64,000 nt of DNA, taken from a virus. This document shows positions 8,459-44,690 of the stretch, piece by piece. The stretch's first letter is position 1; every line of letters begins with the position of its first letter. The stretch covers positions 10,702-74,701 of IMG/VR virus record IMGVR_UViG_3300045988_115158; one strand, 5' to 3'. The position numbers and the translations under genes were made by a program. The notes below the pieces were generated by a model. The model did no database searches and was not told the DNA's origin. It saw nothing but the letters and a program-made list of their open reading frames with translations.

Positions 8459-9197
8459 TTAAAATATTGTCATCATTATTGGTTTCATTATGGTCATCTG
8501 CGATTTCTTCTTCCTCACCATATTCAAAGTTATGGATAGTATCTAAAACCTTCTGCATATTAGGTTCAATCAGTTTATCTTTAAAACATCCATCAACACT
8601 ACGACAAGTATCGTTACCATTGGTTTTAGTTCTAAAGAAATAACTAATATTGCCCTCATCATCAACCTGGCGTTCAGTATATAAAATATAAGAAAATAAA
8701 CCATCAATATTTACGGTTCTATCCAACATTTTACCACTAGAATATAACTGCCAATGTTCATCGAGGTCAGTACCAGCATTAATAATATGACTAATGAATA
8801 CTACATTAAGATCTTCACGCAGTTCACTAGCTTCCATGATTAAATCATAATAATTTTTAGCAAACACAACGTGCTTATCCCAACCCTTTTCAAGGGCAGA
8901 ATCCATTATATTATTTGAAAGACAATAGTTAGCATCATCTACGACTACTGTCTTAATATCAGAACGTAATTTATCAATAATCTTTAACCACTTACCAATA
9001 GTAGTATAATCATTAGACACAAGCCAATTTCCAACTGGCTTCTTATTTACAACTTCAGCTTTCTTGTACTTACGTCTAAATCCAGGAATTTGAAGTTGCT
9101 TGTTAGTACAACTAATGATAAATGTTGATTTATAATCTAAATAACGCAAAGAAGTGCTTTTTCCGGTACCACTCAAACCTGCTAAACCAATAATCAT
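8445..9197 (-). CDS. P-loop NTPase (recombination/replication ATPase)
   Basis: N-terminal GLAGLSGTGKST Walker A. VVDDANY Walker B-like. Confidence 0.55.
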   Translation of the reverse strand: MIIGLAGLSGTGKSTSLRYLDYKSTFIISCTNKQLQIPGFRRKYKKAEVVNKKPVGNWLVSNDYTTIGKWLKIIDKLRSDIKTVVVDDANYCLSNNIMDSALEKGWDKHVVFAKNYYDLIMEASELREDLNVVFISHIINAGTDLDEHWQLYSSGKMLDRTVNIDGLFSYILYTERQVDDEGNISYFFRTKTNGNDTCRSVDGCFKDKLIEPNMQKVLDTIHNFEYGEEEEIADDHNETNNDDNILNEAN

Positions 9198-9484
9198 AAA
9201 CTATAGTCTAATTTACTTTTCACTTTTTCATCTTCAATATTATCTGTTAAATTATTATTATCTGTAGCTCGGTATTTAGAATAATCATAAATCTCGGAAG
9301 GGGGAGGTAATTCTACCCATTTATTCACCATGCCATCAAAGAAACAACAATCAGCTACTTGATTTTCTCCATATCTTGATTTTAACACAAGAATACTTCT
9401 AAATCTATAACCCATTTCTTTTACTTGATATCCTCTATAAGAAGAACGTTTATCAACTTGAGGATTATAGACAGCTAGAATCAA
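9194..9484 (-). CDS. hypothetical protein
   Basis: 96-aa ORF, 4-nt overlap with upstream gene. Confidence 0.4.
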   Translation of the reverse strand: MILAVYNPQVDKRSSYRGYQVKEMGYRFRSILVLKSRYGENQVADCCFFDGMVNKWVELPPPSEIYDYSKYRATDNNNLTDNIEDEKVKSKLDYSL

Positions 9485-9657
9485 TTCTGCTGCCTCACTT
9501 GCAATATATTATCCTACGGGCTCTTTATCCCACAGTTCTATACTTTTATTTATATGTATAGTTTAGACTATATCTTTAATTTATTTCATATTCTCACGAA
9601 CCTTACTTTAAACAGTGCCCCGCTTTCGTGGAAGATTTTATAGCTTCTAATATAAAA

Positions 9658-10845
9658 TTAGTTCAGCGTCACTTCTAGTCGTTTAGCTTTTTCCTCTATT
9701 TCTAGAGGGTTTAGCACAGGAACTTCTTGCTCTTGTTCAAGATTTACCCTGTTTAACGGAGTTTTAGGTACACCTAATTTGTACATAAGAGTGTAATGCA
9801 TATATGGAGTTATTAACTCTTTTAAGTGCTCAAAATCTGAAATACTTAGTCTAATTGTTTGATCTGAATGCTTAGACCAATGCAAGTTAAATTTTGTAAG
9901 CATTACTTCTTGAATAACTTTAATATCTGCATCTGTAAAACAGTTTGTACAAATTGTTATAGAACCATGGTCATAACATCCATCATCCATTATCCAAACT
10001 GCAATACCCAAAGGTTCAATGTTGTCTATAAGAGATTTATTAATATATTTTATTTTATTATTATGATATAATTTATTATAATAGGCTCCCATAGCATCAT
10101 TTACTTTAAAATGTGTATACAAACAAGCATACCATTTACCTTTTATATCATTAAAGTTATCTTTAAAAGATACTTTTCCACAAAATCTTCTTAATTTATT
10201 ATATTTCCAATAAAAATATTCCGCTTGTTTTAAACTATGTGCAAACATTCCAGTTCCACTTTCATCTCTAAGATACCCATCTCCTAATAAACATCCTAAG
10301 AATACTTGAAATTCCTCCGAAGATAATTCATTTAATCTATTTTTATTTTTATTTGGAGATAGCCCTAAAGATCTAGCATATTCTGAAATAGCACTATTAC
10401 TAGTATTTAATTCTTTAGCAATATCTACGTAAGTTAATCCTTGATTATATAAATCAATAAATTTATTTTCATCAAACTTTGGTTTATATTCAAAATTTGA
10501 ATCTAAATTTTTACGTATACGCCAGTTACGTACAGTAACATGATTTAATTGAACTATTCTAGCAATTTCAGAGTCATTTTTTCCTTCTTTATAAAGTTTA
10601 TACATTTCTTCATCATACTTTGCACGATTTTTATAAAGAGACCCATAAATACCCTGACCAATACTCGGAATATTAATTTTCTTTTCTTTAGGTTTTAAAA
10701 TATCTTTAGCACTTAAATTAAATTCAGATAATCTCTTTCGAACTACTGAGAGAGTTACTCCTAGTTTATCTGCTAATTCTTGTCTAGTATGGCAAGAATT
10801 AGCTGCTTCAATAAAATCACTTTTAGAAATTTCAATTTTTTTCAT
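9658..10845 (-). CDS. free-standing LAGLIDADG homing endonuclease with N-terminal HTH repeats
   Basis: LGCLLGDGYL and VWIMDDGCY motifs. Three sigma70-r4-like HTH repeats at the N-terminus. Located immediately downstream of the intron-containing helicase gene. Confidence 0.65.
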   Translation of the reverse strand: MKKIEISKSDFIEAANSCHTRQELADKLGVTLSVVRKRLSEFNLSAKDILKPKEKKINIPSIGQGIYGSLYKNRAKYDEEMYKLYKEGKNDSEIARIVQLNHVTVRNWRIRKNLDSNFEYKPKFDENKFIDLYNQGLTYVDIAKELNTSNSAISEYARSLGLSPNKNKNRLNELSSEEFQVFLGCLLGDGYLRDESGTGMFAHSLKQAEYFYWKYNKLRRFCGKVSFKDNFNDIKGKWYACLYTHFKVNDAMGAYYNKLYHNNKIKYINKSLIDNIEPLGIAVWIMDDGCYDHGSITICTNCFTDADIKVIQEVMLTKFNLHWSKHSDQTIRLSISDFEHLKELITPYMHYTLMYKLGVPKTPLNRVNLEQEQEVPVLNPLEIEEKAKRLEVTLN

Positions 10846-10910
10846 ATACTATAATTTTTAATATTATAGTAATATATTATCTAAAATGGATTATTATCAA
10901 AGCTTTTATT

Positions 10911-11558
10911 TTATTTTTTAAAAGTTATATAAAAATATTGCGTTAGTGTACCAGTTTCCTTGATATCCTCAACCATTGGTTCCATGAAAGCTTCATTTTT
11001 CTTTCTTTCCATGTTAGCTACACTTCTATTAGACTGCATAATGAAAAGAACAGATAAATCAGTTTTATTTCTAACAACTACAAGTTTATTAGCACATTCG
11101 TCAATCTCTCCTTTTTTAGTGCGTCCATTAGCAGGTATTAAAAGTCCCGCATGGTCAATTACAGCTAAAACAGTTTGTTTAGGATTATTAGGAGTATAAT
11201 GACCATCTTTAAAAGTGCCCTCTTCTTTAAGAACCTGCATAATTTCAGATATTACTTTATCAGAAGTATGGGCACCATCAAATATAATTAATTTTTTATA
11301 TACCTTTTCTAACCATTCATATCCTAATTTTACATATTCATATATATCATCTGGTAAAGTATAATCTTTACCTATAGAAAGTATCTGTTTAGCAGATATT
11401 CTAATATGATAAGTATCATACAAATACGTACTTAATAGTTTAGCTATAATAAAGAATTCTTTCATCTCAAGAGCAAAGAAGATAATCTTAATTTTATTAT
11501 CTTCTAGGTGCTCTTTTAATGGAATATAAACATATGAATATAGGGCTGCACTTGATTT
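10911..11558 (-). CDS. DnaB-family replicative helicase, exon 2 (from Walker A lysine onward)
   Basis: Frame extends upstream of the annotated Met as KSSAALYSYVYIPLKEHLEDNKIKIIFFALEM..VIDHAGLL..FIMQSNR. This matches DnaB GKT-FSLEM-DYLQLM-QLNR motif order. Confidence 0.6.
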   Translation of the reverse strand, partial: KSSAALYSYVYIPLKEHLEDNKIKIIFFALEMKEFFIIAKLLSTYLYDTYHIRISAKQILSIGKDYTLPDDIYEYVKLGYEWLEKVYKKLIIFDGAHTSDKVISEIMQVLKEEGTFKDGHYTPNNPKQTVLAVIDHAGLLIPANGRTKKGEIDECANKLVVVRNKTDLSVLFIMQSNRSVANMERKKNEAFMEPMVEDIKETGTLTQYFYITFKK

Positions 11559-11939
11559 CAGTTATGTTATCCTATAGGCTTTTTATCCTATAGTTCTATA
11601 GTTTCTTATTTACTATAGCTCGGCGTACATATTCACCTTCAGCATTGCCTGTTAAGGGCAGACCACTCTTGGAACTATTGTATTCTAACAGAAATAGTTC
11701 AGCTATTAACTAGACTATTTATTAGGCTCAAGTTCTACGCTCTACGATGCTACAGACTCTTTAGTTTCTGTAGTTATCTCGGTATTAGCATCACAGCCTT
11801 CACCGATATTGGTCTGAATTGGTCTATATGATTTCTCATATAGCTGGCGAAAATATATAAATTTCTCATATTTTCTATCTAAATATATAGTGCAATTATC
11901 ATATAAATATTTTATTATATTGTAAGAAATTTTTTAATC
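11559..11939 (-). other. group I-type self-splicing intron (ORF-less) inside the DnaB P-loop codons
   Basis: Separates ...ASSGIG (ending in T) from KSSAAL.... The intron ends in G. Multiple stop codons. Shares a conserved hairpin core with the intron at 13907-14255. Confidence 0.55.
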
Positions 11940-12103
11940 ACCAATACCTGAACTAGCAAACAACAATGTAAAAGTACTTTTAGTAAGTCCACCTGTTATT
12001 TCTTCTAGTTTAGGTAACCCTATACTTAATCCATGATTTCTTCCTAATCTACCGTTTTCTACTTCTTTCTTAAAACTCTCTAAACTCACAGAGTTGCAAC
12101 AGT
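11940..12103 (-). CDS. DnaB-family helicase, exon 1 segment (no start codon; -1 frame relative to 12086-12697 ORF)
   Basis: Reads ...NHGLSIGLPKLEEITGGLTKSTFTLLFASSGIG, the DnaB motif preceding Walker A. Opens right after a TAA. Confidence 0.5.
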
Positions 12104-12697
12104 ATTACAGTCCATTCCAGTGTCTCCATTCTTTAAAGCTTCAAGATCTTCCCATTTTTCATCTACAATAAATGTAGCTAGGCTATAATTAATAATACCA
12201 TTATCAGTATTAGCTTCCCAATCTAGTAAATCAATAATCTTTTTATGAAGTTCTTCATTCCAATGGATTTTCTTTCCATAAGTTCTATAAGCATCTTCAA
12301 GACTATTAAACTTTTTAGAAACACCTAGCATACTAGTTAAGCATCCATTAATATTTCTAAATCTAGGATAATGTTCTCTAAGTTCTTTTCCCATTTCAAA
12401 GGAACTCTTAGCTAAACATTTTAGGAAGTTTTTATTAAATGGTATCTCTTCAGGAACTAGTTTCATTCCTGGAATAATTTTATAACTTTTAAGGATAAGA
12501 CCTTTATCTTGTAAAGATTTAAGTATATCTATAAAACTTCCTACATACTTTTTATCAATAGCCAAATACCTACGAAGATAATCTTCTGAATAATCTTCTA
12601 TATAAGCATTTATAGCTTTAATAACAAATAATTCAGTAGGAGTAATATTATATTTTTCTAAAATTGTTATTTCTTCATCAATGTTTAAATCAAACAT
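12086..12697 (-). CDS. DnaB helicase N-terminal domain ORF (probably fused to downstream exons via frameshift or indel)
   Basis: 203-aa ORF ending 16 nt inside the exon-1 frame. The combined length (~450 aa) fits DnaB. Confidence 0.45.
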   Translation of the reverse strand: MFDLNIDEEITILEKYNITPTELFVIKAINAYIEDYSEDYLRRYLAIDKKYVGSFIDILKSLQDKGLILKSYKIIPGMKLVPEEIPFNKNFLKCLAKSSFEMGKELREHYPRFRNINGCLTSMLGVSKKFNSLEDAYRTYGKKIHWNEELHKKIIDLLDWEANTDNGIINYSLATFIVDEKWEDLEALKNGDTGMDCNTVATL

Positions 12698-12775
12698 ACA
12701 GTAATTCGGATAATTAAAAGTCTTCCATACTGTAATTAAGTTAATCTCTTTTCAGAGCGATATTAATACATAGAT

Positions 12776-13906
12776 TCAGAATCTAAAATCAAATTTAGGA
12801 ACTATCTTTTCACCTGGGGTAAAGTCTTTACCTTGTAACACTTTATCCAATTCTGATTCGTCTATAGTTATAAAAGAATCTCCCTTATGAGAATCATAAA
12901 ACCACTTAGTTTCTTGAGTTCTATTTAATACTATATTGAATATTTCTGCTGTCTTACCTTTTTCAAAGCGGATTGATCTTCCTCTCCGTTGACAAGCTCT
13001 AGTAGTTGAACTATCTAATCCAAATATAATAGCTACAGAAAGACCTTTTACATCAAGTCCTTCATCAGCTTTTTTTACTGTAGATAATAGAGTTATCTTT
13101 CCAGAGTTAAAATCTTCAATAGCTGTAGCACTTCTTTTCTTAGAAGTTCTACTAGAATATACAGTAGCATTAGGAATTTTTTCTGCCATTTTAATATTAT
13201 TAGCAAAAGTTATTATTTTTTTATCCTTTCTAGCTTCTATAATTTTCTTTACTATTTCAATTTTCTTTGGATGATTATTTATGAAAGCTTTTTTCTCATG
13301 CATAGTAGACCAAAATCTGATAGCATGATAATTTATACTTTGTAATACTTCAGACTTTTTATTAGGATCACTACACATAGAATCTCTTAGGAGTAGTTTA
13401 TTTCGCCAACCCATAGGACCAGCTAATTTATTAACTAACTCCCAAGAGAATCCGAAGAATTCAAAATGAGAAATGAATTCTTTATTTATTTTTTCATATT
13501 CTTCTAAATCATCAACATTTACTAAGACTAGATATTCTTTATATGGGCTAACCCAACCATTTGCAAGACAAGTATTAATATCAATAGTATCAATTACTGG
13601 ACAGTATTTTGCTAATATTTTATCTCTACCATCAAGACGCTCAAAAGTAGCTGTAAGACCTAAGATAAATTGGTATTTTACTACTTCAAATAATCTTACA
13701 AAAGTCTCAGCTGCATATCTATGCGCCTCATCCAGTACTAAAAGATCATATTTGACAGGATGTTTTATTACAGTGTTTATTATTTGTACATCACAACTTA
13801 ATCCTAGCCCATTAGAATCTATATGACCACACCATTGTTTTTGTAAAGTTTCTGTTGGCACAATTATTAGTACTCGATATTGTGGAAAGTGTTTTAACAC
13901 TGTTTT
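12776..13906 (-). CDS. SF2 DNA helicase (UvsW-like), exon 2
   Basis: Begins KTVLKHFPQYRVLIIVPT. LVLDEAHR (DEAH), GLTAT (motif III), QRRGRSIR (motif VI). Confidence 0.6.
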   Translation of the reverse strand, partial: KTVLKHFPQYRVLIIVPTETLQKQWCGHIDSNGLGLSCDVQIINTVIKHPVKYDLLVLDEAHRYAAETFVRLFEVVKYQFILGLTATFERLDGRDKILAKYCPVIDTIDINTCLANGWVSPYKEYLVLVNVDDLEEYEKINKEFISHFEFFGFSWELVNKLAGPMGWRNKLLLRDSMCSDPNKKSEVLQSINYHAIRFWSTMHEKKAFINNHPKKIEIVKKIIEARKDKKIITFANNIKMAEKIPNATVYSSRTSKKRSATAIEDFNSGKITLLSTVKKADEGLDVKGLSVAIIFGLDSSTTRACQRRGRSIRFEKGKTAEIFNIVLNRTQETKWFYDSHKGDSFITIDESELDKVLQGKDFTPGEKIVPKFDFRF

Positions 13907-14255
13907 AATACAGTTTAGTCCTGTTCTGGATTTCGGTCTTGTTATCGTATAGCTTTTTATCTATACTTCTTACTATTACTAATAAGCCCCGCATAAATTT
14001 TTACCCACTTATTTCAGTTGGGGTATCGAACACTCGTGGAGAAATTATATTCTAATGAAAATAGTCTAGCTATTAACTAGACTATTTATTAGGTTCATTC
14101 TCTATGCTGTACGGTGTAGAAGATTTTTTAATTTCTTCTATTACCTCGGTATTACCCTCTATAGGGCTTTCACCGATTTTGCTCGATAATAATTTCGAAG
14201 ATTCCTCTATCGAAACGGCATCGTAATTAACAGGTATATGACCCGCTTTTACAGT
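13907..14255 (-). other. group I-type intron inside the SF2 helicase Walker A codons
   Basis: Separates ...IVASTGFG from KTVLKHF.... Contains the hairpin aatagtctag/ctagactatt also present in the DnaB intron. Exact splice boundaries are ambiguous by a few nt. Confidence 0.5.
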
Positions 14256-14387
14256 ACCAAAGCCAGTAGATGCAACTATTGTCCCTACACAACGATTTTT
14301 TATCCATTTTCTACGACACTCTTCTTGTCGTTCATCTCTAGTGATTTTATGAAATAGTTCTCCTTCAATCAGAGAGTTTGTAGCCAT
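14256..14387 (-). CDS. SF2 DNA helicase, exon 1
   Basis: MATNSLIEGELFHKITRDERQEECRRKWIKNRCVGTIVASTGFG. The annotated 101-aa ORF runs on into intron sequence. Confidence 0.5.
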
Positions 14388-26304: not shown

Positions 26305-26695
26305 TAAGTACCCCTTTGGTACTTACAAATTAAATAATAAGATTAAATAATTGGAGGCATGTATAATCTACAATACTGATTAGCATACCAAATCCAACCC
26401 TTCTTAAATGCTTTTAAAGTTCTTTTTAAAATTTTCATCATAATAAATCAAATTTAAAGTTTAACTTATAAAATATCTAGGAGGAGAGTTTAAAAATTTA
26501 AGAATCCCAGGTAAATCACCCCTGTTAGAGACATGGTCTCTATTTTTATTATTTAGGATTCTATAGGAATGCAAAAAACGTCGAACCATTCCAGTTCGTA
26601 GGTTCTACGACACCTAATAGGCGAGTATGCATCGTTGAGAGGCACCCTATAAGTTACGTTGCTCCTGTAACTAGTATTCTAGAGCTTTATCATAG

Positions 26696-26773
26696 TGTGA
26701 GATGTGGGAATCAAACCCACGCAAGCCTTCACATTGGAAGTGTGATGTGCGCCTTCAACTACACTAATCTCAC
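26696..26773 (-). tRNA. tRNA-Gly(UCC), extended variable region
   Basis: Acceptor gtgagat/atctcac. Anticodon arm tcaca-cuUCCaa-tgtga. T-arm gtggg-tttgatt-cccac. Confidence 0.55.
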
Positions 26774-26785
26774 ATTGTTTAATAG

Positions 26786-26859
26786 TGGAGCGTAGGAGAT
26801 TCGAACTCCTAAGAATGCCTGCGTGCAAAGCAGGTGCTGACCATTTGAGCCGACGCCCC
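26786..26859 (-). tRNA. tRNA-Ala(UGC)
   Basis: Acceptor ggggcgt/acgctcc. Anticodon arm cctgc-tuUGCac-gcagg. T-arm aggag-ttcgaat-ctcct. Confidence 0.55.
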
Positions 26860-26869
26860 AAATTGGAGA

Positions 26870-27346
26870 TTACTCTCCAGTTAATTGTTTTATTTTAAGT
26901 TTAGCTTGTGTTAATTCATATATTAAATCAGATATAGTTTTTTTATTATCTTTAAGATGTTTTTTGAGAGCTTTAATAGCTAATTTCATGCTATTAAAGT
27001 TCTTTAAATTATTTGCTATGGATTCTAATTCTTTAAAAGACTTAGTATCATCAAACAAAGATATATTAACTTTAGCTTGTAATTCTTTAATTTTAAGATT
27101 CTGTTTTTCAATCTCATTTTCTAAAGACTGAATCTTATTATTTAAGGAAGCTATAGTCGATCCATCTTCTAATTCATCTATATAGGATTCTAATTCTCCG
27201 ATTTTTTGTTCTAAACCAGCATAATGCTTTTTTCTTTCAGCATCATACTCTTTAAACCTATTTATTTTGCTTTTTAAAACAGCTATAATAAAATCCTTTT
27301 TATCATAAAAGTTTGCGTCAGATTGATAATTAAAAGTTTTTTTCAT
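26870..27346 (-). CDS. coiled-coil protein
   Basis: 158-aa ORF rich in heptad-like E/K/L repeats. Confidence 0.45.
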   Translation of the reverse strand: MKKTFNYQSDANFYDKKDFIIAVLKSKINRFKEYDAERKKHYAGLEQKIGELESYIDELEDGSTIASLNNKIQSLENEIEKQNLKIKELQAKVNISLFDDTKSFKELESIANNLKNFNSMKLAIKALKKHLKDNKKTISDLIYELTQAKLKIKQLTGE

Positions 27347-27366
27347 ATTATTTATTTTTTAACTAG

Positions 27367-27438
27367 TTGTGGGTATTGGACTCGAACCAATGACCGTTTG
27401 CTTATGAGACAAACAAGCTACCACTGCTACAACCCACG
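27367..27438 (-). tRNA. initiator-type tRNA-Met(CAU)
   Basis: C1xA72 mismatch (cgtgggt / acccaca + a). D-arm and T-arm nearly identical to bacterial tRNA-fMet. Anticodon loop cuCAUaa. Confidence 0.6.
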
Positions 27439-27447
27439 ATATTAAAG

Positions 27448-27519
27448 AGCTTCAAGTAGGATTTGAACCTACGACCCGCATTTTACAAGAATGCTGCACT
27501 ACCACTGTGCTATTGAAGC
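27448..27519 (-). tRNA. tRNA-Thr(UGU)
   Basis: Clean cloverleaf. Acceptor gcttcaa/ttgaagc. D gcac-agtggta-gtgc. Anticodon gcatt-cuUGUaa-aatgc. T gtagg-ttcaaat-cctac. Confidence 0.7.
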
Positions 27520-27664
27520 TTAAATAAAGGCGAATATGGCATTAGACGGGCGAACTATCGTGACCATATTCTAATAATACATTGAGCTATCAGGCATACT
27601 CGTGGATCGCCACCGCTACCTCTAACAACCGCCTAGTTAAATGCTAGGTCCTCTCTATTATTTG

Positions 27665-27741
27665 CGGAATATAAGGGACTCGAACCCTTAGTTTTACTAG
27701 AGTGACAGTCTAGTTCCCTTACCAACAGGGCTTAATACTCC
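27665..27741 (-). tRNA. tRNA-Asp(GUC)
   Basis: Acceptor ggagtat/atattcc. Anticodon ctaga-cuGUCac-tctag. T aaggg-ttcgagt-ccctt. Confidence 0.55.
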
Positions 27742-27812
27742 AGGCGCCTCTTGTGTACACATTTCTTTTCGAGAAGGTAGCTAACCTTAGAAATAAGAGG
27801 CATATATTATTG

Positions 27813-27893
27813 CGCCTAGACTAGGATTCGAACCTAGGAACCTTTCGGGGCAAGTTAACAGCTTGCTGCCGTTGACCACTTGGCTATCTAGAC
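27813..27893 (-). tRNA. tRNA-Asn(GUU) with ~12-nt variable region
   Basis: Acceptor gtctaga/tctaggc. Anticodon gcaag-cuGUUaa-cttgc. T ctagg-ttcgaat-cctag. Confidence 0.5.
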
Positions 27894-37024: not shown

Positions 37025-37116
37025 ATGTTAATGTGTTATTTAATTAAACAAAAAAGAGCCTAACTAGATTAACTAATTAGACTCTTTAAAATAGAATAAT
37101 ATAATAAAAGAAATAG

Positions 37117-37189
37117 TGGGCTCGCCCGGGATTGAACCGAGAATAAGAGATTATGAGTCTCCCGTTTTAACCGATTGAACTACAAGCCC
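37117..37189 (-). tRNA. tRNA-Met or tRNA-Ile2 (CAU anticodon), elongator type
   Basis: Acceptor gggcttg/cgagccc. Anticodon ggaga-cuCAUaa-tctct. T ctcgg-ttcaatc-ccggg. Confidence 0.55.
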
Positions 37190-37389
37190 GAGTAGGTACT
37201 TCTAAGAATAAATAAGAACTCAGTACCTATATTGAGGAATCCGTCGTTGGATCAGTTCTACGCAATTTAGGCTTTTTAAGAAGCCTTAACTTACTAAAGT
37301 TTTCGCACAATTTTGATAAGAGCTCTACTTTCACAAGCAAAGCTCTTTTATTTTTAACAACTTATAAATTACAATAATGATAGAAAAAG

Positions 37390-37461
37390 GAAATGCGGAC
37401 AGATTTGAACTGTCGACCTTCTACTCAACGATAGACGCTCTAACCACTGAGCTACACATTT
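37390..37461 (-). tRNA. tRNA-like gene with non-canonical anticodon loop (6 or 8 nt, cgttga / tcgttgag)
   Basis: Perfect acceptor, D-arm (gctc-agtggtta-gagc) and T-arm (gacag-ttcaaat-ctgtc). The anticodon arm tctat-cgttga-gtaga is one nt short of canonical. Confidence 0.45.
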
Positions 37462-39102: not shown

Positions 39103-39291
39103 AATTTATCTATAATTAATGTGTTAATAATCTATTTAAATAATAGGCAATTTTCACTGGTTATATTTAAACTATTCCATTGTCCTCAGTTATCTAACGT
39201 TCTTTCTCTTTTTAACCCAAATGATTAATTTTAAGGTAATTACGCTATTTAATAGAGTTACTGAGAGTTGTTTAGTACCTATTAAAATTAG

Positions 39292-39363
39292 AAGGATATA
39301 GAGGAGTCAAACCTCTTCTTTTGGGGTCAAATCCCAACGTGGCTGTCGTTACACCAATATCCC
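39292..39363 (-). tRNA. tRNA-Gln(UUG)
   Basis: Acceptor gggatat/atatcct. Anticodon ttggg-auUUGac-cccaa. T agagg-tttgact-cctct. Confidence 0.6.
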
Positions 39364-39378
39364 TTGTATCTAATGAAG

Positions 39379-39466
39379 CGGAGAAAGAAGGATTCGAACC
39401 TTCGAGCCATGTAATATGACTAACACCTTAGCAGGGTGCCACTTTCGACCACTCAGTCATTTCTCC
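39379..39466 (-). tRNA. tRNA-Ser(GCU), class II long variable arm
   Basis: 88 nt. Acceptor ggagaaa/tttctcc. Anticodon gcacc-cuGCUaa-ggtgt. T gaagg-ttcgaat-ccttc. Confidence 0.6.
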
Positions 39467-39477
39467 AATAAAGCTTC

Positions 39478-39491
39478 CTATCTTCACAGAC
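39478..39491. repeat. conserved motif CTATCTNTCACAGAC in a hairpin loop (copy 1 of 4)
   Basis: Copies at 39478-39491, 39664-39677, 43071-43085 and 43155-43169. Each lies between variable inverted-repeat arms. Confidence 0.5.
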
Positions 39492-39846
39492 AAGAAGCCT
39501 AACAACTCTTTAACGTTATAAAGTCCGCTGACTTCATATTTTAAACATTAATTGTATTAGTTTTTTAAATATGGAAGAGTAGCACTAGCGATGCTCGAAA
39601 TCGCCTTTTAACTTTGAAAAAGTTACGTCCTGACCAGCTAGACGATAGTGCCAAGTAGATTCTCTATCTTCACAGACTGAGAATCTCGTGTATTACAAAT
39701 GAATACTTTTAATAAATTAAAAATTAATGGTGCTCCCTGACAGTACTGACCTGTCTTCCCGAAATTAAAAGTTTCGTGCTCCACCTTAAAGCTTAGAGAG
39801 CTAATTTATAATCTTATTTTGCATAAGAATTTTATTCTTGTATTAG

Positions 39847-39916
39847 TGGAGATATGTGGAATCGAACCACAATCTCGGGATTTTTACCGTGCTCTAACCT
39901 TCTGAGCTATATCTCC
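39847..39916 (-). tRNA. tRNA-like gene, anticodon arm degenerate (loop taaaaat)
   Basis: Good acceptor (ggagata/tatctcc), D-arm and T-arm (tgtgg-ttcgatt-ccaca). Anticodon stem only 3-4 bp. Identity unresolved. Confidence 0.35.
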
Positions 39917-40024
39917 ATAGCCCACATTTCTATAAAGGAGAATAGTGGTAACACCTACCTATACTAATAAATTTATTAGTCAGGATTTATCCAAACACAC
40001 TAACAATATATCAAATTAAATTTA

Positions 40025-40108
40025 TACGGTAGAAAGGATTCGAACCAATGACCTTCTCGAAATGACCTATTATAAAAAGAGATGCTATAACCACTGAGCT
40101 ACTACCGT
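40025..40108 (-). tRNA. tRNA-like gene (84 nt), anticodon region unresolved
   Basis: Acceptor acggtag/ctaccgt and D-arm are clear. T region attggttcgaatccttt is shared with the 40539-40619 element. Confidence 0.3.
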
Positions 40109-40163
40109 AAGTACTAGTTTATATCGGAAAACTAGTAAAACGTTAACACATTATTATGGAAAC

Positions 40164-40514
40164 TTAAAAGCCAAATGAAAACATGGTATCTGCGGAAGTA
40201 CTAAGAGTTACGTAAGGAATTTTATTTCTTATTGTAATAAATACAACAAAGCGTCTTCCTGTATTAACCTCTCCACAATTATGGATTTCTACTCCATCCT
40301 TCATTTCAGAAGAGTATATTTTTAATACCATTTTACCAAACTTACTATTACTAAAAGTAATAGTTTTTCTAGCTTCATTATATACTACTGAAGTTTTAAT
40401 GTAAAATGGGTCACTCCATTCACCATCTTGATAAACAGTGATAGAACCATAATTAAACGCATGAGCTATTGTAGTTAATACAATAAAACTCATTAATAAA
40501 ATAATCTTTTTCAT
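40164..40514 (-). CDS. secreted hypothetical protein (start moved to MKKIILLMSF... to avoid tRNA-like overlap)
   Basis: Signal peptide MKKIILLMSFIVLTTIAHA. The ORF track extends to 40562 but that overlaps the tRNA-like gene. Confidence 0.45.
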   Translation of the reverse strand: MKKIILLMSFIVLTTIAHAFNYGSITVYQDGEWSDPFYIKTSVVYNEARKTITFSNSKFGKMVLKIYSSEMKDGVEIHNCGEVNTGRRFVVFITIRNKIPYVTLSTSADTMFSFGF

Positions 40515-40538
40515 ATTACTCAATCTTTTTAATGTTAG

Positions 40539-40619
40539 TACGGAGTAAAGGATTCGAACCAATATAACCTCTCTATGAATTGTGGAAATGAGGTGCTCTA
40601 GCCATTAAGCTAACTCCGC
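40539..40619 (-). tRNA. tRNA-like gene with enlarged anticodon loop (~11 nt)
   Basis: Acceptor gcggagt/actccgt. D gctt-aatggcta-gagc. Anticodon region cctcat-ttccacaattc-at(a)gagg. Confidence 0.3.
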
Positions 40620-40626
40620 ATGTGTG

Positions 40627-40711
40627 TGAGGGAAGAGGGACTCGAACCCTCAAGAGCATAATGCTAACAGTTTAGAAGACTGTGACGCTTCCAATTACGC
40701 GCTATTCCCCC
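40627..40711 (-). tRNA. tRNA with UCU anticodon (Arg by code) and unusual 15-nt variable arm
   Basis: Acceptor gggggaa/ttccctc. D gcgc/gcgt. Anticodon acagt-cuUCUaa-actgt. Variable tagcattatgctctt. T gaggg-ttcgagt-ccctc. Confidence 0.5.
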
Positions 40712-44225: not shown

Positions 44226-44690
44226 TCATAACTTATAATTATTTTGTTGGTATTCTGCTACTAATAACTTAGCATTATCTGCAAGTGCTATAATGTTAGA
44301 TTTTAACAATCTTTTATACGCACATAAGACAATGTCATAGCATGTCTGTGTAGAATCATATGGTTCTTCTTTACGATCTTCCCATTGTGCGATAGTTCGA
44401 GTATTAAGACCATAGATTCCTCCAATATAAACCTCATTTATTGTCATAAGGTTTATATCTTTAGTTCTAAACATTCCATATTTATCTGGACCAAGGTTAG
44501 CATTACGAAACCCTTTACGCCAAATTCTTTTATGGAGTATCATACACTCAGATAGAGTATTGGCATTACCAATTTTAGTAAGCCAACACTCATAACTATT
44601 AACAAGACCTTGTTGAAGTTTATAATCTGCAACATTCTTGTTTAATTCCCTTTTATGGAAAATTTTATTCCAAATGTTGTATTTCTTCAT
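44226..44690 (-). CDS. hypothetical protein
   Basis: 154-aa ORF. Confidence 0.4.
   Translation of the reverse strand: MKKYNIWNKIFHKRELNKNVADYKLQQGLVNSYECWLTKIGNANTLSECMILHKRIWRKGFRNANLGPDKYGMFRTKDINLMTINEVYIGGIYGLNTRTIAQWEDRKEEPYDSTQTCYDIVLCAYKRLLKSNIIALADNAKLLVAEYQQNNYKL

Follow-up and report, generated by a model that had tools for sequence, protein, structure and literature searches.

A DnaB-like helicase gene and an SF2 (ResIII/UvsW-like) helicase gene, both located on a 64,000-nucleotide stretch of a viral genome (IMG/VR record IMGVR_UViG_3300045988_115158, positions 10,702 to 74,701; hereafter the window), are each interrupted by an insert within the codons of the P-loop (Walker A) motif GxGK[ST]. 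We consider it very likely that both inserts are group I introns, probably of IA type, which are spliced from the helicase mRNAs and descend from copies that carried a gene for a LAGLIDADG homing endonuclease. An earlier note, based on the sequence alone, had read the inserts as mobile group I introns, and this reading is supported by their fold, their boundaries, and natural intron-less alleles, all of which are shown here, as are the intron family to which they belong and endonuclease-bearing alleles. Such elements are ordinary in kind, being selfish elements of a familiar type (mobile group I introns in phage replication genes). What is worth recording is a large family that is invisible to the standard model, a recurrent target at the Gly-Lys junction, and an allelic series with three states.

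Intron boundaries and intron-less alleles

In this part of the window, the minus strand encodes all of the genes. A contig of 181 kilobases (kb), designated L125, shows 89.5-95.5% identity to the window in the blocks that can be aligned. It is devoid of the SF2 intron and of two introns in the DnaB-like gene, and encodes uninterrupted proteins of 356 amino acids (aa; DnaB-like) and 429 aa (SF2). Its alignment with the window breaks exactly at 14255/13933, 11940/11550, and 10948/9501, and it was the last of these breaks which revealed a third insert, DnaB intron 2. The intron-less sites of L125 read ACAGGATTTGGT^AAAACGAGA and TCAGGAGTTGGT^AAGAGTTCT (here and below, ^ marks a splice junction). 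The position of the intron-terminal G (11559 and 13934) follows from the intron-less allele and from where the alignment to R1 stops, R1 being a covariance model of the 3' half of the intron family (154 positions).

The insert in the DnaB-like gene had been described as 381 nucleotides (nt) long and positioned at ASSGIG^KSS, which is confirmed (11939 to 11559). Exon 1 ends with ...GCTAGTTCAGGTATTGGT at 11940, and exon 2 starts with AAATCAAGTGCAGCC (KSSAALYSYVY...FFALEM), its initial bases AAATCAAGT being translated to KSSAALYSYVY after the 381-nt gap. The insert follows U and has the terminal G at 11559, which bears out the earlier statement that it obeys the U/G rule. The product of the three exons has 356 aa, of which 338 (95%) are identical to the continuous open reading frame (ORF) from L125, and Pfam domain DnaB_C covers this protein in one stretch (residues 20-310) across both junctions.

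For the SF2 gene, the break after ...ASTGFG was correctly recognized, with GGT ending at 14256. The insert had been estimated at ~349 nt with a junction G^KTVLKHF, which is off by 27 nt; its real length is 322 nt, as established by uninterrupted homologues of 429 aa and by the intron-less L125, with the boundary at 13934/13933. The 3' end was located by homology with the DnaB insert, the ends being GATAACAAGACCG^AAATCC (SF2, 13934/13933) and GATAACATAACTG^AAATCA (DnaB). Exon 2 thus starts with AAATCCAGA at 13933, and the protein junction is GFG^KSRTGLNCIKTVLKHF (i.e., ASTGFG^KSRTGLNCIKTVLKHF). With this boundary, the insert (14255 to 13934) is preceded by U and has G as its last base, which removes the ambiguity of a few nt that had been seen with respect to the U/G rule. 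Both breaks fall between the Gly and Lys codons of GxGK[ST], as had been proposed, and the predicted exon joints are ...TTTGGT-AAATCCAG (SF2) and ...ATTGGT-AAATCAAG (DnaB). The spliced SF2 product has 429 aa and is matched by the Pfam domains ResIII, DEAD, and Helicase_C, with ResIII running through the junction. The protein database contains uninterrupted homologues of exactly 429 aa which are 98% identical to the spliced product and read GFGKSR(I/V)GLNCIKTVLKHF; distant homologues retain GFGKTRxGLNC.

DnaB intron 2, when searched alone, matches the Rfam group I model RF00028 with 30.9 bits (E=3.4e-6), which is below the cut-off of 50, and it matches R1 with E=3.9e-8. It is missing in L125 and also in L004 (MT835492.1), a near-identical relative that has the same DnaB intron 1. 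We take its insertion site, ETGT^PSEAAEL, to be motif H4. The 5' splice site of this intron is preceded by C (GGTACAC^TAACG) instead of the usual U, and intron-less alleles read GGTACTC^CAAGTG.

The structure of the two genes is as follows:

14256..14387 (-): SF2 (ResIII/UvsW-like) helicase exon 1, MATNS...IVASTGFG, ends with GGT (ORF list, splice model, N-terminus identical in the uninterrupted 429-aa homologues)
13934..14255 (-): SF2 P-loop group I intron, 322 nt, ACUGUAAAAGC...GAUAACAAGACCG, terminal G at 13934 (precisely missing in L125; R1 match 13934-14113 ends on the terminal G)
12776..13933 (-): SF2 helicase exon 2, KSRTGLNCIKTVLKHF...FDFRF including stop codon (in frame with ORF 12776..13900)
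11940..12089 (-): DnaB-like helicase exon 1, GTG start, VSLESF...LLFASSGIG (the uninterrupted ORF in L125 begins at the same GTG)
11559..11939 (-): DnaB P-loop group I intron 1, 381 nt, GAUUAAAAAA...GAUAACAUAACUG, terminal G at 11559 (missing in L125; R1 match 11559-11746)
10946..11558 (-): DnaB-like helicase exon 2, KSSAALYSYVY...MVEDIKETGT (Pfam DnaB_C)
9502..10945 (-): DnaB intron 2, 1444 nt, third group I intron, motif H4 (missing in L004 and L125; RF00028 and R1 matches)
9658..10845 (-): LAGLIDADG homing endonuclease ORF within DnaB intron 2, 395 aa, N-terminal helix-turn-helix repeats (Pfam LAGLIDADG_2, E=2.1e-26)
9194..9501 (-): DnaB-like helicase exon 3, PSEAAELILAVYN...LDYSL including stop codon (spliced product compared with the L125 ORF)

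Endonuclease-bearing alleles and remnants

In the SF2 intron of L004, 951 nt are found in place of the first 61 nt (window 14255-14195). This stretch holds a LAGLIDADG ORF of 319 aa, the last ~45 codons of which traverse the guide sequence and helices P2-P7 and extend into P7.1. The C-terminus of such an ORF has been left behind in both P-loop introns of the window, with ~65 codons in DnaB intron 1 (NIIKYLYDNCTIYLDRKY...) and the last 42 codons in the SF2 intron (tblastn, E=2e-19). The former is located as follows:

11721..11921 (-): LAGLIDADG C-terminus remnant in DnaB intron 1, NIIKYLYDNCTIYLDRKYEKF..., runs into the ribozyme core (tblastn with the L004 intron ORF, 43% identity, E=1e-12)

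The remnants together with the L004 ORF identify the two P-loop introns as decayed endonuclease carriers. Neither holds a full ORF or an intact enzyme; the earlier statement that both lack ORFs thus stands for complete ORFs and fails for these leftover codons. What defines a homing intron, namely the occurrence of alleles with and without the intron at one site together with an endonuclease encoded in the intron, is found here (L125, L004, and the remnant in DnaB intron 1), and the locus represents a three-state allelic series: empty site, intron with endonuclease, and intron with decayed endonuclease. According to Pfam, the enzyme from DnaB intron 2 is of type LAGLIDADG_2, and that from the SF2 intron (L004) of type LAGLIDADG_3/1.

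The SF2 intron is also found, with or without the LAGLIDADG gene, in a set of close relatives (L004, 2646-3857; L128; L132; L133). These show compensatory changes in P2 (UUUCGA/UCGAAA, UUCCGA/UCGGAA, UUCUG/CAGAA).

A group I fold supported by covariation

The fold was analyzed in a MAFFT alignment of 38 diverse family members, which was not fitted to any structure, and was written down by eye. The order from 5' to 3' is guide, P2, P3, J3/4 (AAAA), P4, P5, P6/P6a, P7 5' strand, P7.1, P3', P8, J8/7, P7 3' strand, P9, P9.1, and GAUAACAnnnnG. Across the modelled pairs, 94.4% of the cells are paired, compared to 34-42% in slid controls, and 52 of the 62 pairs change on both sides, a level which is reached in none of 500 shuffles. 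The P3/P7 pseudoknot is present (98.7% and 100% of cells paired, respectively), and the other helices are similarly well paired (P4, 100%; P6/6a, 95.5%; P8, 90.8%; P7.1, 98.4%). In P7, a bulge at column 202 is followed by a G-C pair that is invariant in 38 of 38 members, while pair 201-338 switches between AU, GC, and CG, and pair 205-335 between AU and GC. RNAalifold, which was run independently, returned the nested helices P2, P3, P4, P5, P6/6a, P7.1, P8, P9, and P9.1. G.U pairs are frequent (e.g., 21 at pair 92-280), which restricts the structure to the mRNA-sense strand. The earlier note had named the lack of any detectable group I or II fold as an observation that would speak against introns; the alignment reveals such a fold from P2 to P9.1, including the P3/P7 pseudoknot.

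P7.1 is present and covaries; a separate P7.2 is not found, and the P7.1a extension is restricted to this phage group. In the classification of Michel and Westhof, IA2 introns reportedly have P7.1 and P7.2 between P7 and P3', and IA1 introns P7.1 and P7.1a.

The splice-site helices also leave a signal at family level. A P1 of at least 4 base pairs (bp) that ends in U.G can be formed by 42% of the family members, compared to 15.5% with mismatched partners. In members with a short P1 loop, guide and exon covary (GUCGC with GCGAU, GUUUCC with GGAAAU, GCCAGU with AUUGGU). P10, the pairing of the 3' exon with bases upstream of the guide, reaches at least 3 bp in 38% of the members versus 15%, with some covarying 5-bp cases. 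The corresponding elements of the two P-loop introns in the window are:

11844..11848 (-): DnaB intron 1 guide GCCAG, pairs with exon UUGGU (U.G at the splice site), directly 5' of P2 (sequence reading; family covariation in members with short L1)
11622..11742 (-): DnaB intron 1 catalytic core, P7 5' strand GaGCGUA at 11736-11742 (bulged A), P7 3' strand UACGCC at 11622-11627, enclosing P7.1, P3' (11659-11664), and P8
14216..14219 (-): SF2 intron guide GCCG, pairs with exon UGGU (sequence reading and family guide/exon covariation)
13990..14109 (-): SF2 intron catalytic core, P7 5' strand CaGCAUA at 14103-14109, P7 3' strand UAUGCG at 13990-13995, enclosing P7.1, P3' (14024-14031), and P8

A number of observations weigh against the assignment to group I. 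In the two P-loop introns, P1 has only 4-5 bp, the P1 loop (L1) is long (30 nt in the SF2 intron, 89 nt in DnaB intron 1), and P10 is reduced to 0 and 1 bp. RF00028 does not match either of them, even when the intron is searched alone at E<=10. The check with Infernal that had been suggested for these introns was thus negative, even though the same model scores the introns of Staphylococcus phage Twort, used as a positive control, with 64-101 bits. At the gathering score, Rfam detected only tRNAs in the whole window; at E<=0.05 nothing further was found, and at E<=10 there was no group I match in a 3.2 kb segment or in the SF2 intron alone. The assignment therefore rests on covariation, on splice-site anatomy, and on a family-specific model that reaches Twort. 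That model, R1, matches two of the three introns in Twort orf142 (E=6.5e-5 and 1.8e-3), with rough E-values and with matches that cover mainly P7', P9, P9.1, and the 3' tail. The Twort record (AF132670) was retrieved with a sequence which we presume to be that of the published ribozyme (98% match). The elements linked by R1, namely the Twort introns and DnaB intron 2, are also recognized by RF00028. As R1 matches both of these and RF00028 misses the P-loop introns, the latter appear to be a divergent branch of phage IA-type introns that is beyond the reach of the curated model.

One additional R1 match in the window (44433-44519 (-), 23 bits, E=0.003) is located in an intact 154-aa ORF, has several broken pairs, and was rejected as a chance match.

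An intron family with a recurrent Gly-Lys target

A pattern scan of viral contigs returned at least 120 family loci. By BLAST, the 3' 130-260 nt were found in many phages, with an endonuclease gene on one side and the second half of an interrupted gene on the other. Such interrupted genes include the tape-measure genes of Staphylococcus phage 6ec and Streptococcus Javan355 and the ATPase gene of the crAss-like phage cr6_1; matches were also obtained in phiCD211, a Bacillus phage, and Lak phages. Several viral contigs (L012, L042, L060, L082, L093, L100, L106, L109, L110, and L123) have 2-3 family members within a few kb each, indicating that multiple occupancy of neighbouring genes is common.

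The earlier note considered two copies in P-loops to be unusual. This does not hold for the family, which has members at the Gly-Lys junction of Walker A in at least six different ATPase genes: those for the DnaB-like helicase, the SF2 helicase, the crAss ATPase, a staphylococcal terminase, and two others. Examples are GTKGTG^KTVMAK (cr6_1 ATPase), GATGFG^KTRVGLNC (SF2), GAAGIG^KTSL, and GKPKSG^KSTL. In Staphylococcus phage CF1 (L134, PP034387.1; 890-1915), the large subunit of terminase is annotated as two coding sequences with a GIY-YIG gene between them; a family member cuts the Walker A loop at ARKSG^KSFLV and carries the GIY-YIG gene in its P5 loop. The guide of the CF1 intron, UUUGCC, is complementary to GGU^AAA. 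Exon 2 begins with Lys-Ser/Thr in ~10 of 87 distinct members, most members being inserted elsewhere, e.g., in tape-measure genes. In a test for a single clade by UPGMA (unweighted pair group method with arithmetic mean) clustering, the P-loop introns were scattered, with distances near saturation. We found no description in the literature of group I introns at the P-loop/Walker A motif in phages.

It is conceivable, though on balance doubtful, that the family is drawn to the Gly-Lys junction by its own RNA rather than by an endonuclease. The guide UUUGCC of compact members is complementary to GGU^AAA, and the endonucleases of the Gly-Lys members differ (LAGLIDADG, GIY-YIG, and an untyped one in cr6_1) and reside in different loops. 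If this were true, the family would spread by a target choice resembling reverse splicing, and endonuclease genes would be swapped in later.

Relation between the two P-loop introns

The two P-loop introns can be aligned over ~300 nt, from the guide sequence, ~90 nt (DnaB) or ~35 nt (SF2) downstream of the 5' splice site, through to their 3' ends. They share an identical block of 26 nt (11701-11726 and 14068-14093; none expected from 100 shuffles), which overlaps a hairpin:

11693..11719 (-): P7.1a hairpin, DnaB copy, AAUAGUCUAG UUAAUAG CUGAACUAUU (missing in the nearest relatives)
14060..14086 (-): P7.1a hairpin, SF2 copy, perfect 10-bp stem

A shared element of ~35 nt with a perfect hairpin had been noted before. 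The two copies are indeed homologous, far beyond 35 nt, while only the SF2 copy forms a perfect hairpin (AATAGTCTAG/CTAGACTATT); in the DnaB copy, CTGAACTATT, the stem includes one C.A mismatch and one U.G pair. The hairpin block is 87% identical, with 26 exact bases; besides these two introns, it was encountered solely in the corresponding introns of seven large related contigs. When the P7.1a hairpin is disregarded, the cores are 61% identical.

The two copies had been taken for paralogues, and one copy may have moved from P-loop to P-loop within this genome, helped by the resemblance of the targets (TTGGT^AAATC). Of 16 bases flanking the site, 13 agree, and the 26-nt block and P7.1a hairpin are exclusive to these two introns and their counterparts in related phages. 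We nevertheless regard direct paralogy as unlikely. Each intron has a nearer relative elsewhere: DnaB intron 1 is 73.5% identical to the ATPase intron of cr6_1, and the SF2 intron is 72.4% identical to that of L050, an endonuclease-less intron of 306 nt at the same site of an SF2 orthologue in another phage. UPGMA places the two P-loop introns in different clusters, and no more than 43% identity is left between their endonuclease remnants. These similarities fit better with a scenario in which the two introns arrived independently and later, as residents, traded a peripheral hairpin module, which would be the simplest reading.

Predicted splicing and alternative explanations

That the P-loop introns act as catalysts, and any need for a protein helper, is our inference. 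The introns would be transcribed within the helicase mRNAs, and the RNA would fold into the P3-P9 core. The guide (GCCAG or GCCG) would pair with the last exon bases (UUGGU or UGGU), so that a U.G wobble marks the 5' splice site. This site would be attacked by free guanosine docked at the bulged G-C pair of P7, upon which the terminal G (11559, 13934) would take the place of the guanosine and the exons would be ligated. Ligation would recreate GGU-AAA and hence the Walker A loops GIGKS and GFGKS, resulting in full helicases of 356 and 429 aa. The ancestors of the introns probably carried the LAGLIDADG homing endonuclease gene in the P1 loop, and its loss would leave them unable to home unaided. 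They may persist because splicing renders them harmless and imprecise loss would destroy an essential motif.

The short P1, long L1, and missing P10 of the window copies raise the question of whether the introns are group I introns that are not self-sufficient, in which case a maturase provided in trans or a host chaperone would be needed and helicase output would be tied to that factor. LAGLIDADG proteins often double as maturases, and such a gene resides in the neighbouring DnaB intron 2. However, the enzyme from intron 2 belongs to another family (LAGLIDADG_2 versus LAGLIDADG_3/1), and the helices of the core are intact, with pairing on a par with that of compact relatives, so that we see dependence on a helper as somewhat doubtful. 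Far less probable is that the inserts are unspliced DNA debris resembling miniature inverted-repeat transposable elements, the helicases being dead or made as separate N- and C-terminal polypeptides. The negative result with RF00028 would agree with this, as would the short exon 1 of each gene, where a stop codon soon follows the junction. Yet the inserts lack terminal inverted repeats, the target is not duplicated at GGT^...^AAA, conservation tracks RNA pairing with G.U on the sense strand only, and the exons are intact and 95-98% identical to uninterrupted alleles. Moreover, with the Walker A loop divided between Gly and Lys, two separate chains could not bind ATP.

A group II intron, an intein, or a translational bypass gap would account for the interruption itself, and DnaB intron 1 happens to correspond to 127 codons, but we consider the chance of any of these to be practically negligible. 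No group II family was found in the Rfam scans, and 322-381 nt would be too short for a group II intron, which has six domains, domain V among them, and usually an ORF for a reverse transcriptase. An intein, which would be a coding insert in frame with a Hint domain, is contradicted by 11 stop codons (TAA/TAG) in frame 0 of DnaB intron 1 and by the length of the SF2 insert, which is 3n+1 and thus not a multiple of three. Known bypass gaps are tens of nucleotides long. Read-through with the help of a UAA-reading tRNA was also considered and rejected, as frame 0 contains TAG stops as well.

Neighbouring genes and tRNAs

An ORF adjoins the DnaB-like gene upstream:

12086..12697 (-): 203-aa ORF adjoining DnaB exon 1, GTGA stop/start overlap (ORF list; Pfam: none)

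The arrangement of this ORF with a GTG-started gene for a DnaB_C-domain protein is conserved in L004 and L125. Its product might serve the helicase as an N-terminal partner on a chain of its own.

The window contains three tRNA clusters with 13-15 genes, all on the minus strand (26695-27893, 37116-37461, and 39291-40711). ARAGORN reports a tRNA of 86 nt with anticodon UUA (40024-40109 (-)), which would read the stop codon UAA, and stop-codon recoding in part of this phage is a possibility. For the tRNA at 37389-37461 (-), with an Rfam score of 53.5 bits, ARAGORN gives an abnormal two-base anticodon.

Significance and comparison with known systems

Both helicase genes, and many similar genes in gut phage contigs, appear broken or truncated in annotation unless the introns are removed. 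Introns without an endonuclease evade searches for protein domains, and this family also evades the standard RNA model. With a model tailored to the family, split phage genes would be recovered by the hundreds. The locus provides a compact natural series for studying the life cycle of an intron and the choice of homing sites, as well as module exchange between resident introns.

The three introns of Twort orf142 (AF132670; IA2; the record notes 'contains group 1 introns') share the helix order, including the extra P7.1 domain between P7 and P3', and also the P9 and P9.1 hairpins, a 3' tail of the form G(A/U)AACAnnnnnG, and a P2 loop of AGUAAU type. They differ in P7 (GACUA/UAGUC versus GCRUA/UAYGC in the P-loop family), in the sequences of P4-P6, and in that the P-loop family is devoid of a separate P7.2. 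Introns of the same ribozyme family as the P-loop introns (R1, 125-127 bits) split genes for terminase and tape-measure proteins in Staphylococcus Sextaecvirus (6ec, CF1) and in Streptococcus prophages. These occur in phages of Firmicutes and carry an HNH or GIY-YIG gene in the P5 loop, in contrast to LAGLIDADG in the P1 loop. The td, nrdB, and nrdD introns of phage T4 are likewise phage group IA introns in genes of DNA metabolism, with often degenerate endonuclease genes and with presence/absence polymorphism; they reside in other genes and have another core sequence.

Group I introns have been found at high density in large crAss-like gut phages by way of their endonuclease domains (Yutin et al., 2021, PMC7886860). 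By that approach, endonuclease-less copies such as the two in the window would be missed, and neither the ribozyme family nor the P-loop position is described in that survey. The relatives of the window are gut contigs of 160-181 kb, and the cr6_1 ATPase intron is a close family member. From contig size and distant protein hits, the phage may belong to the crAss-like group.

In bacteria, DnaB proteins contain inteins at the P-loop (site b) and at motif H4 (sites a/c) (Novikova et al., 2016, PMC4760082). In the window, elements are inserted in these two motifs of this protein family, with intron 1 in the P-loop and intron 2 aligned with H4; inteins are removed from the protein, whereas the introns would be removed from RNA. 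That these DnaB motifs are targeted by introns here and by inteins in bacteria, and that the Gly-Lys junction recurs as a target, makes a case for the convergence of selfish elements on conserved codons.

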